From Eledone cirrhosa (taxonomy: Eukaryota), in NCBI GenBank assembly GCA_964016885.1, contig OZ024740.1, positions 272,614,001-272,678,000 of the forward strand: DNA of 64,000 bases. The letters run 5' to 3'. Positions 19,235 to 57,409 of the stretch are shown here, in pieces (the first letter of the stretch is position 1; each line of letters begins with the position of its first letter). The notes beneath the pieces are model-generated. The model did no database searches, was not told where the DNA came from, and was given only the letters and a program-made list of their open reading frames with translations. The position numbers and the translations under genes are program-made.

Positions 19235-19507
19235 TATATATACATATATATACCGTAATTCGGGCTGTTTGTTTGTTTACAAGCATTATAATAAATGTTC
19301 GGTAAACCGATACATGCATATATATATGTGTACATGTATGTATATATATGCATACTTCTGTAGTCTGTATACATATATGTATGTACGTATACATACATAC
19401 ATACTTACATTTAAGTAAGTGCTGTACTAAGAGTTAGAAATGAAATTTCGTTTCATTCTATTCCATTTATCCTTTTCGGTGCGCCTGGCCGACTGAACTC
19501 ACTCCAT

Positions 19508-19555
19508 ATGCAAATTAGGCTGCTCAGCCGTTAATATGCATAAGGAAAGTATATA
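19508..19555 (+). promoter_or_regulatory. Candidate type-3 Pol III promoter (octamer, PSE-like, TATA); repeated at 19946-19993
   Basis: ATGCAAAT, TCAGCC at +16 and GGAAAG TATATA at +42. The layout is mirrored at 57198-57246. Confidence 0.55.
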
Positions 19556-19590
19556 CTTTCAGACGTTCAACCATCTGGCAGGAAGGTATA

Positions 19591-19631
19591 CGATGCTGAC
19601 GATAGCTAATAAGCTTGAAACTAGTACATTG
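19591..19631 (+). ncRNA. Minimal type I hammerhead ribozyme
   Basis: cgatg CTGACGA tagct-aata-agctt GAAA ctag TA cattg. Confidence 0.85.
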
Positions 19632-20028
19632 TTCCTGTGTCAGTGTTGAACAAAAAGGTGACGTGGTTGCCTAAACACTGTACGGCGTAATTCGGGCTGT
19701 TTGTTTGTTTACAAACAAACAAACCGAGCATTATAATAAATGTTCGGTAAACCGATACGTGCATATATATATGTGTGCATGTATGTATATATATACATAC
19801 TACTGTACGTCTGTATACATATATGTATGTACGTATACATACTTACAGTTAAGTAAGTGCCGTACTAAGAGTGAGAAATGAAATTTCGTTTCATTCTATT
19901 CCATTTATTCTTTTCGGTGCGCTCGGCCGACTGAACTCACTCGTCATGCAAATTAGGCTGCTCAGCCGTTAATATGCATAAGGAAAGTATATACTTTTAG
20001 ACGTTCAACCATCTGGCAGGAAGGTATA

Positions 20029-20069
20029 CGATGCTGACGATAGCTAATAAGCTTGAAACTAGTACATCG
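20029..20069 (+). ncRNA. Minimal type I hammerhead ribozyme
   Basis: cgatg CTGACGA tagct-aata-agctt GAAA ctag TA catcg. Stem I is perfect and stem III is palindromic. Confidence 0.88.
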
Positions 20070-20439
20070 TTCCTGTGTCAGTGTTGAACAAAAAGGTGAC
20101 GTGGTTGCTCAAAAACTGTACGGCGTAATTCGGGCTGTTCGTTTGTTTACAAACAAACAAAGCGAGCATTATAATAAATGTTCGGTAAAGCGATACGTGC
20201 ATATATATATGTGTGCATGTATGTATATACATACATACTACTGTACGTCTGTATACATATATGTATGTACGTATACATACATACTTACATTTAAGTAAGT
20301 GCCGTACTAAGAGTGAGAAATGAAATTTCGTTTCATTCTATTCCATTTATATATATATATATATATATATATATATATATATATATATATATATATATAT
20401 ATATATATATATATATATATATATATGTATATATATATA

Positions 20440-20705
20440 AATTTTGAGTATATGGTGGTTGTATACCAACACCTCAGTATGCAGTTTGGAGCACTCGAAG
20501 AAGTGCGCAGGTTGGTTTTGTTACTCCGGAGTAATGTAAAATAAAATAAAATAAATAAGTCAAATGTTTAAATTAGTGTTTCTAACACACTAATTCGGAC
20601 TGCCTGAAGAGGTCACAGCCAAAGATGGCTGTCACCGAAATATATATAGCAGTAATAAACGAAGCCAAATTTTAAACATTTGACTTAATTATATTATTTT
20701 ATTTT
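20440..20705 (+). mobile_element. TA-flanked PLE-type element with inverted 3' end
   Basis: taagtcaaatgtttaaa (20556-20572) is inverted relative to tttaaacatttgactta (20671-20687). Contains a hammerhead. Confidence 0.75.
20599..20653 (+). ncRNA. Type I hammerhead ribozyme
   Basis: actgc CTGAAGA ggtcacagcc-aaagat-ggctgtcacc GAAA tatata TA gcagt. Confidence 0.88.
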
Positions 20706-53899: not shown

Positions 53900-54090
53900 A
53901 TATATTTCAAGGATACCAAGTTAAATCATGGTATGCCTTCATCAGACAAAATACAATATATAACAGTTTTACAAATAGATAATTGACATACCCTTTCAAA
54001 AAGGCCATCCTTGAAATATATATATATATATAATATATATAATGAAATAAATATGGTTTTATAAATATAGTTTCCATTTATTAATACTGT
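53900..54090. mobile_element. Family G fold-back fragment with hammerhead (53900-53951 on -)
   Basis: The minus strand reads ttttgt CTGATGA aggcatacca-tgatttaact-tggtatcctt GAAA tatata. Confidence 0.7.
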
Positions 54091-55109
54091 ATATATATAT
54101 ATATATATATATATATATATATATATATATGCATGTGTGTATATGTGTGTATATGTATGTATGTATGTATGTATGTATGTATGTATGTATGTATGTATGT
54201 ATGCGTGTGTGTATATGTGTGTATATATATATGCGTGTGTAAGTGTAGGTATATACATATATATATGTATTTATTTTTACCCCGTAACCTTACGTTCTGC
54301 ATCAGTGTGTATATTTCCCCGTTATTTTATTTTATATATTTCTTAATTTTATTTTATTTTGTTTCAGCCTCGCTTTCAATTGTAATAGCCTTTGTTTAAA
54401 TATATATATATATTTCGAAGTTGTAATTTCTAAGAAGCAGCTTGATCTGAGACTATTAAAACTAAAATAATAACTGTGTAGAAGAATCTTTTAGCCATCT
54501 GAAAACGTTAAGTAACTTTATCACCAAATCTGTTAAGTAACCAAATCTTTATCACCAAATCTGTTAAGTAACTTTATGTATACCATATATTTCTTAGAAA
54601 TAAGTGAAATTGAGCACACAGAGTGCGGCAAAGTGTTGGACACTATGAAATATATGAAGTACATTTAAGAGAGTTTACGCGATTCTAAATAGCAAAAATG
54701 ACTCTTCTCAGTAATTATTATGGGGGATTGGCAGTATCGGTAAAGGGCCGGACGCTGTGCTTTGCAGCACAGAGTTACGTCCCTTTATGATCTGAGTTCA
54801 AATTCCGTCGAGATTAACTTTGCCTTTCATCTTTACGGGGTCGATAAAATAAAGTACCAGTAATAGACTGAGATAATTGCTGGCCTTGTGCCAAAAGTAG
54901 AAACATTTATATACGTATATGTTTGTTTATTGTATGATTATCTGAATTGTGGTGAGTATATTTCCCAGTTTCAAATTTTCCAATGCAACCAAATTTGTTT
55001 GTATACATACATACATACATATAAATAAATGTATATATGTATATATATATATATATATATATATATATATATATGTATGTATGTATATATATATTTTTTT
55101 TTTTCTAGG

Positions 55110-55468
55110 GCGTGTAAAATTCCCGAGATCCATGGACGAGTTCTCTCTAGCGGTCTCTGTCCCTCATTATCGCTGCCATGTCCTGCGTCTCCAACAGACC
55201 ACTGTCTGTCCTTAGGGCATCAACATAAGTTAACCTTGGTCTTTCTCTACCAGTGTGTCCATGTAGGGGCTCCCACAGGAGCACTGAGTGCAATGTCAAC
55301 TCTGGATGTCGGTGAGCATGTCCAGCTACCCTCAGTCTCCTCTGTGTCAATTTTGAGCTGACTTTTGGGAGCCTCCCATACAGCTCTGAGTTTTTCATCC
55401 TCAGTTTATACTCATTATTGTTCAGAGCCATCCTCAAATACTCGTGTAGCACCCATCCACCATCTGAG
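55110..55468 (-). mobile_element. RTE-like LINE 3' fragment
   Basis: LRMALN..ELYGRLPKVSSKLTQRRLRVAGHAHRHPE..LLWEPLHG..RPRLTYVDAL. Confidence 0.85.
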
Positions 55469-55884
55469 TATATATATATATATAAATATATATACATAAA
55501 TATATATGTGAATTGAATTAGAAGATTTTGACTTAATTTTGACTAAATAAAATGAAATATAATAGTCTAATAATATAGGCGAGAGAGAACGAGAGAGAGT
55601 GGAGAAAAAGAGAAAGAGAGGGGGAGAGAGAGGGAGTTAATAATTACGTAATGCTGTCATCACGCAACCAACTACACGATTTCATAAGGCACCATCTTAT
55701 ATAATAAGAATTTCTGATATAAGTACAAGGCTAACAATTTTAGGGGAGAAAAAAGTAATAGGATTGTTATGTAAGACTTCTAATGCAATACGAGCTATCG
55801 ACATGGGGACGGACGGATTCGATGCTAATCCTAAGAGAGCCCGACCCCGGCACGAACCCTCAGAAAAAAAAACTTTATATATAT

Positions 55885-56218
55885 ATGTGTGTGTGTTTGT
55901 GTGTGTGTGTGTGTGTGTGTGTGTGTGCGCGCGCGTGTGTGTTCGTGTGTGTGTGTGTATGTGTGTGTGTGTGTGTGTGTGCGTGTGTATTTGTGTGTGT
56001 GTGTGTGCGCGCGTGCATGTGTGTTTGTGTGTGTGTGTGATTGTGTGTGTGCGCGTGTGTGTGTGTGCGCGCGTGCGTGTGTGTGTGTGTGTGCGTGCGC
56101 GCGTGTGTGTTTGTGTGTGTGTGTATGCCTGTGCGTGTGTGTGTGTGTGTGTGTGTGTGTGTGTGTGTGTGTGTGTGTGTGTGTGTGTGTGTGCGCGTAT
56201 GTGTGTGCGTGTGTGTGT
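55885..56218. repeat. (GT)n/(GC) microsatellite
   Basis: Directly visible. Confidence 0.95.
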
Positions 56219-57041
56219 AGCCCTATATAGTTATGGCTGTTTTCAATCCCCGCTGAGGTTGTTTTTGACTTTCACCTTTACATACATACAGAATGCCCAA
56301 CGTATACTGAGTTGGACACTATATATGTATGTAGGAATCTATACTTGTATCTATACTCGTGTAGAGATATGTATACTTCTTCGTTTAATATATAATACCC
56401 TCCCTTATGGTAGAGTGAACATTTGGCGGAATCGAACTCCTTTCTAGTAGCACGTAGCCTGCCAATGTCCACTTCTATTGCTCTCCTGTTGGTCATTTGT
56501 CACATGACAGTCATTTCATTCGAAATTTTCACAGACAGCGAACGGCTGGGAATTCTTGTTTGAATTTTATTTCTGGTCCAAGAAAACCTCCTCATGATTT
56601 GAGATTTTTCTCGATACTCTACTCGGAGTATCGTTATTTTCCCAATTGGCAGTATCGGTAGAGGGTCGGACGCCATTCTTTGACGCATAGAGTTACGGCC
56701 CTTGCCATTCTGAGTTCAAATCCCGCCGATGTTAACTTTGCCTTTCATCCTTACGGGGTCGATAAAATAAAGTACCAGTAATGGACTGGGTAATTTGCTG
56801 GCCTTGTGCCCAAAAGTAGAAAATATTATTTTCCTAATGAAACTGCAGTAGGAACATTACAGTGATTAAGTTAAGATTTTTTCCTTAACTTGTTTGCTTT
56901 CCCCATATTTGATTTTATTAGGGTTTGAATCTGTTAATTTTATTGTCTCTTTCATAGAACCAAACTCAGTATAAGTTGGACACTATGGATGTATGTATCT
57001 ATACTTGTATCTATACTTGTGTAAGGATATGTATACCTCTT

Positions 57042-57409
57042 TGTTTGCATAGCTACGGCTTCCTTAATGTTTACCCTGTAAACATACCGTGTTTCTTTAG
57101 AAATACGAAATTTCTATACATATCTGTATAAAGCTATGCTTGAAGCTAAATCCTAATTCTATTCTATTATTAGTTGAGCAAACTTATGCAGCTTCATATG
57201 CAAATGAAATTAATCACCTCATTTACACAGATGGGAAAACTATATATTCTCGACTGTTCTAAAGTCCAGCAGTCGCAAGCGTGGGAGGGAGCGTTCTGCT
57301 GTACACCACCAGAGGGTGTTAGCCCCGGTGTTTGCATAGCTACGGCATCCTAAAATATTTACCCTGTAAATATACCGTGTTTCTTTAGAAATACGAAATT
57401 TCTATACAC
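57042..57409 (+). mobile_element. Partial-tandem element (~287-bp unit) with octamer-PSE-like-TATA module, ending at (TA)n
   Basis: 57042-57121 repeats directly at 57329-57409. ATGCAAAT 57198, TCACC 57214, TATATA 57241. Confidence 0.7.

Follow-up and report, generated by a model that had tools for sequence, protein, structure and literature searches.

What drives the transcription of short non-coding retrozymes in animals, and which enzyme copies them? Published accounts state both points as open (PMC7761336, PMC7229834, 10.64898/2026.07.22.740005). The same questions are raised by two tandem elements in a 64,000-nucleotide (nt) stretch of the Eledone cirrhosa genome (assembly GCA_964016885.1, contig OZ024740.1, positions 272,614,001 to 272,678,000 of the forward strand), hereafter the window. 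A first-pass annotation had assigned both elements a shared module of octamer, proximal sequence element (PSE)-like motif and TATA box, and had read them as candidate RNAs mobilized by Penelope-like elements, with RNA polymerase III (Pol III) transcribing them from an external promoter. On balance, and by a modest lean, we take the elements, members of repeat families C and D, to be retrozymes of the type without long terminal repeats (non-LTR), with Penelope-like ends and an octamer-YCA-TATA promoter (Y, pyrimidine) of small nuclear RNA (snRNA) gene type that is probably used by RNA polymerase II (Pol II).

Retrozyme units and their insertion ends

In the family C insertion (19254 to 20350, plus strand), which is 2.5 units long (unit, 438 nt), two promoter blocks and two type I hammerheads are present, and the 3' end lies on (TA)n. 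Block 1 (19508 to 19555, plus strand) consists of ATGCAAATTAG at 19508 to 19518, the core TCAGCC at 19524 to 19529 and TATATA at 19550 to 19555; block 2 spans 19946 to 19993 on the same strand. The family D insertion (57042 to 57410, plus strand) is one deleted unit followed by a 90-nt terminal repeat, and its block (57198 to 57246, plus strand) reads ATGCAAATGAA, TCACCT at 57214 to 57219 and TATATA at 57241 to 57246. This copy is defective, with a deletion near 57294 and an octamer tail changed to GAA from the GAG of the family majority. The annotation had placed the octamer ATGCAAAT exactly (19508, 19946 and 57198), and its spacings also held, with TCAGCC or TCACCT at +16, TATATA at +42 (19550 and 19988) or +43 (57241), and (A/G)GCAG beginning 27 nt past the start of the TATA box in both elements. 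The GGAAA that it had listed as common to the two is indeed seen in both, but is partly a private change of the copy at 57198, the family majority reading GAGAAAAC. Its TA insertion of the family D element stands for the 3' end, which lies on a TA-rich run, but not for the 5' end. ATGCAAAT occurs four times on the plus strand of the window and never on the minus strand, the fourth copy (37814) having no promoter module attached, and no open reading frame of 120 amino acids crosses either insertion.

The earlier account of both elements lacked the class-defining feature, the hammerhead. Every intact unit has a type I hammerhead, which follows the TATA box by 44 to 56 nt and the predicted start site closely. 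Those of the family C insertion, both on the plus strand, lie at 19590 to 19632 (core CTGACGA at 19596 to 19602, predicted cut after GUA at 19626) and at 20028 to 20070 (core at 20034, predicted cut after 20064), and promoter block 2 thus sits inside the predicted cut-to-cut monomer, 19627 to 20064. Their helix I is ACGATG/CATCGT and their helix III is palindromic. Other family D copies carry CTGATGA...GAAATGCATA, which the ~50-nt deletion (junction at 57290 to 57296, plus strand) removed from the window copy. A full core and three helices are present in families C, D, E and G, the last two found by a hammerhead scan of the fetched loci and both carrying the same block ahead of the hammerhead. 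The helix I sequence differs in each family, and the two ribozyme-region columns that vary between family C subfamilies (86 and 122) pair with each other in helix I. As circular monomers the units fold into chains of hairpins, with z scores of -7.7 (C), -4.2 (D) and -9.0 (E) against 40 dinucleotide shuffles each. With a hammerhead, short non-coding tandems, many copies and no layout of LTR and primer-binding site, families C, D and E have the sequence hallmarks expected of non-LTR retrozymes.

These families are abundant. We searched the 3.0-Gb genome and, as a random sample, 146 stretches of 10 kb (1.46 Mb), of which 140 were evenly spaced, mostly on the four largest contigs, and 6 lay beside the window. 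A first look gave 1,650 candidates for family C and 3,034 for family D genome-wide; in the sample we counted 21 insertions of C, 8 of D and 3 of E. If the sampled contigs are typical, this extrapolates to roughly 40,000, 16,000 and 6,000 insertions in the genome. Units measure 438 nt in C, ~339 nt in D and 467 nt in E. Copies of family E are 98 to 99% identical and form long arrays, including one of 30 promoter-bearing units (C1:5738410-5751968) and one of 14 (C1:14044619-14050762), while family G is known from 3 copies. Variants of the families and junctions on TA are also visible in four contig runs of unrecorded kind. Genome-wide, ATGCAAATKAG-N31/32-TATA is matched exactly 29,765 times, whereas its reversed control yields 359 matches, so that the pattern exceeds chance; the block is present in at least four hammerhead families (C, D, E and G). 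An older tandem element at L324:5474-6000, with an octamer, CCAGC at +16, TATA at +42 and a CTGATGA remnant, is a possible fifth family. Outside this genome, 36 metagenome loci matched the module, none of them tandem and 5 with loose hammerhead-like pattern matches; they included no convincing ribozyme and were taken as chance.

Copies of families C and E end at two fixed 3' sites, both on (TA)n, at unit positions 401 and ~338 in C and 434 and 359-366 in E. In family C, 54 of 72 pieces have their end on TA, with 32 at unit 401 and 15 at 334-340; for family E the corresponding figures are 41 of 51, with 20 at 432-435 and 20 at 359-366. Family D ends near 304-313 and 272 and is less sharp, 29 of 57 pieces not ending on TA. 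A GAAA/TTTC hairpin lies between or beside the two ends; in the window it occupies 19875 to 19892, within the family C tail segment (19845 to 19908, plus strand; unit positions 338 and 401). Inverted pairs are frequent among the insertions, and most pairs join one end of each type (9/12 in C, 18/22 in E). A Penelope-like reverse transcriptase (RT) starts at two internal sites, yielding a tail (PMC11167929), and Penelope-like elements have inverted arms and (TA)n targets (10.1101/2021.04.23.441226). Fixed 3' ends, inverted 5' arms and (TA)n targets together mark these sequences as probable non-autonomous elements mobilized by a Penelope-type enzyme, as the annotation had proposed.

The 5' ends say more about the template. 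They are scattered along the unit, with no pile-up at the start or the cut site, and among the 16 random family C pieces with an end at 396-401, 11 are at least 400 nt long and span cut site, start and promoter. These pieces reach the octamer, which supports the renewal of the promoter through the tandem layout that the annotation had proposed. Since copies traverse both promoter and cut site, the template would be a circle or an uncut multimer, and a linear cut-to-end template is rejected as the main route because copies show no 5' boundary there. In vitro, uncut RNA is the chief substrate for the element of PMC11167929. GIY-YIG-like fragments are common in the genome (44 matches in 31 of the 146 sampled loci). 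In the window, fragments resembling Penelope-type proteins (GIY-YIG-like, Cys-rich linker) lie at 8099-8941 (minus strand), 39466-39936 (plus) and 59339-59944 (plus); Pfam returned no match for these three, and the Atlas places a Penelope-like fragment in a GIY-YIG cluster at 0.95, which we treat as a lead. Within the fetched loci, no copy of the 3' hairpin lies outside the elements and no GIY-YIG fragment could be tied to C, D or E. Elsewhere, a U6atac pseudogene is inverted against a family G promoter (L121:1300-1620) and a U6 pseudogene sits inside a Penelope-like repeat (L074:1500-1700), positions which suggest that the same RT captures Pol III snRNAs. Scars of A-to-I editing are unsupported here: an A>G excess appears only in family C (132 versus 89, P=4e-4), partly from shared variants at few columns, and not in D (P=0.94) or E (P=0.51).

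The putative promoter block and host snRNA promoters

We compared the block with the promoters of host genes for U6 (30 loci plus 12), U6atac (8), RNase MRP (1), RNase P (1), U1 (6), U2 (22) and U5 (10). Removal of near-identical array copies and promoterless pseudogenes left 14 promoters of genes that, from general knowledge, we take to be transcribed by Pol II and 6 that we take to be transcribed by Pol III. Three U6 types, U6atac and RNase MRP carry ATG(C/G)(A/T)AAT(G/T)AG at -76 to -78 and TATA at -30. The single RNase P RNA gene (G000:C24:12936134-12936474; L326:85-150, L327:45-60) has no octamer at the U6 position, carries TCAGT 32 nt before TATA and has a T9 run after the gene end; termini of host Pol III genes are runs of T5-T10. 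Each of the 14 Pol II genes (U1, U2 and U5) carries AATTA(A)A between -88 and -91 and, between -55 and -58, TCA(G/A)T or CCAGT, thus TCAGT itself or a sequence one letter away; a TATA-like match stands near -30 in 13/14, and the octamer is missing within 100 nt in all. A 3' box like AAAATCAGA follows the U1, U2 and U5 genes by 10-25 nt (L111-L116, L091-L110, L137, L145-L154). In this host a TATA box is no mark of one polymerase class over the other. What differs is the distance from core to TATA or TATA-like box, 25-28 nt in U1/U2/U5 and 30-32 nt in U6, U6atac and RNase P. In insects the difference between the two snRNA classes is said to be one of 8 versus 12 bp. It likewise lies near the core (PMC1761439). 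Within the C19 U6 array, each ~1.8-kb repeat (e.g., L063:151-290) holds a second U6-like promoter with an octamer variant and TATA at +46, after which U6 is absent, and 6 of 26 fetched units have a SINE-like (short interspersed nuclear element) insertion in the U6 promoter.

The octamers of the elements score 13-18 bits on a matrix of host Pol III genes (background 4e-5). The distance from octamer to core, 16 nt, is kept in U6 and in the elements, and octamer and core thus look like one rigid unit, with CTA or CCT at this position in U6 and YCA in the elements. Beyond the core, the register is that of Pol II genes: the core-to-TATA distance is 26-27 nt in C, D and E, outside the U6-type range, and C-A-G follows the core by 56-57 nt in all four families, which is the start position of U1/U2/U5. 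From host U6/U1/U2 geometry, the predicted start of family C is 19580 (plus strand), the A of C-A-G at TATA+30, and that of the family D copy is 57271. The family G core is an exact TCAGT. Octamer-to-TATA distance is 42-43 nt, against 46-48 nt in host Pol III genes. A control search at U6 spacing (861 matches versus 162) recovered a separate family of dispersed repeats, in which the core is CCATT and GGGTATA stands at the U6 distance (47 nt) (e.g., G000:C1:78039715; L196, minus strand, near 1100-1220; L279), together with many older variants that have YCAG at +16. The short spacing of the elements therefore represents a distinct class rather than drift.

The block is also conserved. Families C and D have BLAST similarity only in a 13-mer around the octamer, and the spacing is kept nonetheless. 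For conservation per copy we used random family C copies only, leaving out loci from the similarity search, which are biased toward the query; promoter columns split between subfamilies in 0/48 cases against 27/292 elsewhere (an 8-column indel included; Fisher P=0.02). The module lies within the repeat unit and is copied along with it, and hence is not the external promoter that had been supposed. The likeness to snRNA gene promoters, by contrast, held up when host promoters were brought in.

Polymerase, alternative explanations and a predicted copying cycle

From these comparisons it is quite likely that the block works as a promoter. Given a working promoter, Pol II would be the somewhat likelier polymerase, since the core-TATA spacing is that of U1/U2/U5 and T5 runs are kept in family E, so that the Pol III of the annotation becomes the less likely candidate. 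These runs lie at unit positions 347 and 428, with T4 at 27 and 59, in nearly every unit; family E, the youngest, forms its long arrays despite them. No host-type 3' box is present in C, D or E. Avoidance of TTTT, which the annotation had reported for both bodies, is not significant, with 0 runs against 2.5 expected in the family C body (P=0.05), 0 against 0.55 in the window D body (P=0.55) and 2 against 3.2 in family E.

Several observations weigh against retrozymes with a Pol II-type promoter. RNase P combines TCAGT with a T9 end, and TCAGT by itself hence is no proof of Pol II. Scored on the Pol II matrix, the C, D and E cores give 2.6, -1.5 and -1.0 bits, respectively, against 5.7-13.5 for held-out genes, and 3%, 15% and 13% of background reach these scores. 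The elements lack the AATTA(A)A motif of -88 to -91; in its place, as judged by eye, the octamer stands at about -73. Two of the three family G copies have a core-to-TATA distance of 29 nt, which falls between both classes. On the Rfam model Hammerhead_HH9, family E reaches 38.6 bits (E value, 5.8e-9), and the second window hammerhead of family C, at 17.6 bits (E value, 0.032), falls far under the gathering score of 52; none attains that score, and Rfam has no match for the family D hammerhead. Copies with a promoter and two hammerheads, which could yield a monomer, make up 5/43 C, 10/45 E and 0/44 D pieces from the search, and 0/48 random pieces; the window C copy is of this kind and the window D copy is not. 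Finally, no autonomous partner was found, and 64 outer 5' flanks share no junction to coding sequence.

The strongest alternative, though a doubtful one, is that the same retrozymes, copied in the Penelope manner, use the block as a U6-like type 3 Pol III promoter, most RNAs stopping at T4/T5 and occasional read-through supplying circles or multimers. Among host genes, only those of Pol III have the extended octamer (5/6 versus 0/14 Pol II genes), and TATA stands at -30. Moreover, the distal 3' end coincides with or closely precedes a T run, as a Pol III terminus would: in family C the first TTTT, correctly noted in the annotation, is 19911 to 19914 (plus strand), 3 nt beyond the distal end of copies (19908), the sole sense-strand T4 of the 438-nt unit, with no T5 ahead of it, and in family E a T5 stands at the distal end. 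Hammerhead repeats of Schistosoma do use Pol III (PMC6765202). Against this, the octamer-TATA distance falls half a helical turn short of that in host Pol III genes, a true U6 spacing being held by a distinct family; of about 84 aligned family E units, 79-84 have a T5 ahead of both 3' ends; the family D majority unit has no T4 after its ends; and 5' ends fail to accumulate at the start or cut site.

It is improbable that the block is a relic of a captured host promoter, kept as RNA hairpins or by descent, with RNAs arising by read-through from neighboring sequence, as reviews assume. Retrozymes indeed seem to lack promoters (PMC7761336), and octamer and TATA each lie within a hairpin in all three units, which are hairpin chains throughout; as RNA, the block folds into two hairpins per family (z -2.7 to -4.4), which may partly explain its conservation. 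However, the sequence of the octamer arm is preserved although the arm it pairs with varies between families, and 1/5 host promoters folds, differently. The spacing to core, TATA and C-A-G is held over C, D, E and G though C and D are otherwise unalignable, and YCA stands at +16 in 37 of the first 50 U6-spacing matches listed (counted by eye and not independent), in a loop in D and E. Hairpins and conservation fit a promoter carried within the RNA and leave room for the relic. That the units are instead pseudo-LTRs (pLTRs) left by autonomous Penelope-like elements, or DNA-level satellites, the block being the promoter of the full element, is very unlikely: Xenopus retrozymes are related to pLTRs (Li et al. 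2026, 10.64898/2026.07.22.740005), local arrays can be long (30 units, C1:5.738-5.752 Mb) and GIY-YIG-like fragments are common, but the 64 outer 5' flanks give only 3 pairwise matches and no common junction to coding sequence, 5' ends are scattered over the unit, and dispersed copies have fresh two-site ends.

For retrozymes with an internal snRNA-type promoter, the reading we prefer, we infer the following cycle of transcription, cleavage and copying. Transcription would start at the C-A-G 30 nt past TATA and continue across the unit to its neighbor. Where a copy has a promoter together with two ribozymes (19254-20350 is an example), hammerhead cleavage would release an RNA of unit length that holds the next promoter and may be circularized; alternatively, the RNA would stay an uncut multimer. 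A Penelope-type RT-endonuclease would nick (TA)n, and reverse transcription would begin at either of the two internal sites around the hairpin. Since the RT would copy more than one unit, new copies would regain the promoter. A bolder version, possible although we lean against it, is that the promoter is a chimera of the Pol III-gene octamer and the Pol II snRNA core-TATA spacing, captured from the host by Penelope-driven retrozymes. It would give strong initiation without termination at T runs, and promoter-bearing circles would be self-renewing; a spacing code of 4-5 nt would pick the polymerase, with elements exploiting both settings. This chimeric layout is absent from the sampled host genes, a search that had 7SK, U4, U3, U7, U11, U12 and selenocysteine tRNA outside its range.

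Other repeats of the window and relation to known systems

A third family C piece (9419 to 9721, minus strand) ends 3' on (TA)n, without a promoter and with a degenerate hammerhead core. Further hammerhead-like cores, at 2295, 2784, 4957, 9943, 10210, 10384, 19214, 20604, 21567, 44409, 44429, 45328, 53945, 57726 and 57733, lie in short TA-flanked, often inverted repeats that have no upstream octamer block in the families checked and are probably Penelope terminal-repeat remnants. A SINE-like family of ~190-205 nt forms head-to-tail tandems of 2-4 units at 34574-35390, 36020-36397, 43164-43589 and 51619-52512. In an Rfam scan of the whole window, nearly all of the matches listed (150 of 278) were microsatellite hairpins against microRNA models, and none of those listed reached the gathering score.

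The promoter of newt satellite 2 reportedly uses an octamer and a PSE, and that of the Schistosoma repeat Sm-alpha is of the tRNA type, with A and B boxes. Closest in class are the metazoan non-LTR retrozymes (PMC7229834; PMC7761336; 10.64898/2026.07.22.740005), which like the elements described here are short non-coding tandems of low GC content with one type I hammerhead, strong self-pairing and thousands of copies, and for which Penelope-like helpers have been proposed. Those of the axolotl share the weak palindromic helix III and the U-U at the base of helix II. Our units (339-467 nt) are at or above the published size range. Circular RNA has been demonstrated for these metazoan retrozymes, and for the present elements it is predicted as one form of the template. 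A review finds seemingly no promoter and no motif pointing to a helper (PMC7761336), in contrast to the conserved block and Penelope two-site tail found here, and the word "promoter" does not occur in the main text of Li, Clavereau, and Pollet (10.64898/2026.07.22.740005). We found no description of snRNA promoters in invertebrate retrozymes in a literature coverage without most subscription papers, Repbase notes and some supplements.

The ends resemble those of Penelope-like elements such as PAc of Anolis (PMC11167929) and Naiad/Neptune (10.1101/2021.04.23.441226), which have a tail produced by two internal RT start sites, inverted 5' arms and partial tandems; AT-rich or (TA)n targets and a hammerhead are likewise shared. 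They differ in that our units have no reading frame and a tail of ~63-75 nt (C, E) or 32-41 nt (D) rather than 30-40 nt. With the host type 3 Pol III promoters (U6, U6atac and RNase MRP), the block shares the octamer ATG(C/G)(A/T)AAT(G/T)AG, the core 16 nt later and TATA at -30, and it departs from them in its core-TATA distance (26-27 versus 30-32 nt) and from their RNAs, which end in T5-T10.

That a tandem unit carries the promoter of the next is a principle already known. Newt satellite 2, a tandem repeat with a hammerhead, has an snRNA-type promoter inside the unit that is reported to be used by Pol II (PMC2220036, PMC6765202); here, several unrelated-looking families share the block, in which a TATA box is present and a compact octamer precedes the core by 16 nt, and copies are dispersed with Penelope-type ends. 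In Schistosoma Sm-alpha, too, a promoter precedes the hammerhead and falls in the 3' part of the cut monomer, and tandems are needed for propagation, although that promoter is a Pol III promoter and not of the snRNA upstream type (PMC6765202). About 30,000 intact promoter blocks before hammerheads, together with the footprint of two RT start sites, would offer sequence-level answers on how retrozymes are transcribed and copied, with exact start, cut and priming sites predicted, and a route by which a retroposon may retain a promoter that normally lies outside its RNA. Given the newt and Schistosoma precedents, the finding generalizes a neglected case and opens no new class: by sequence, Penelope-mobilized retrozymes with an internal snRNA-type promoter block are a real feature of a known class with known precedent.

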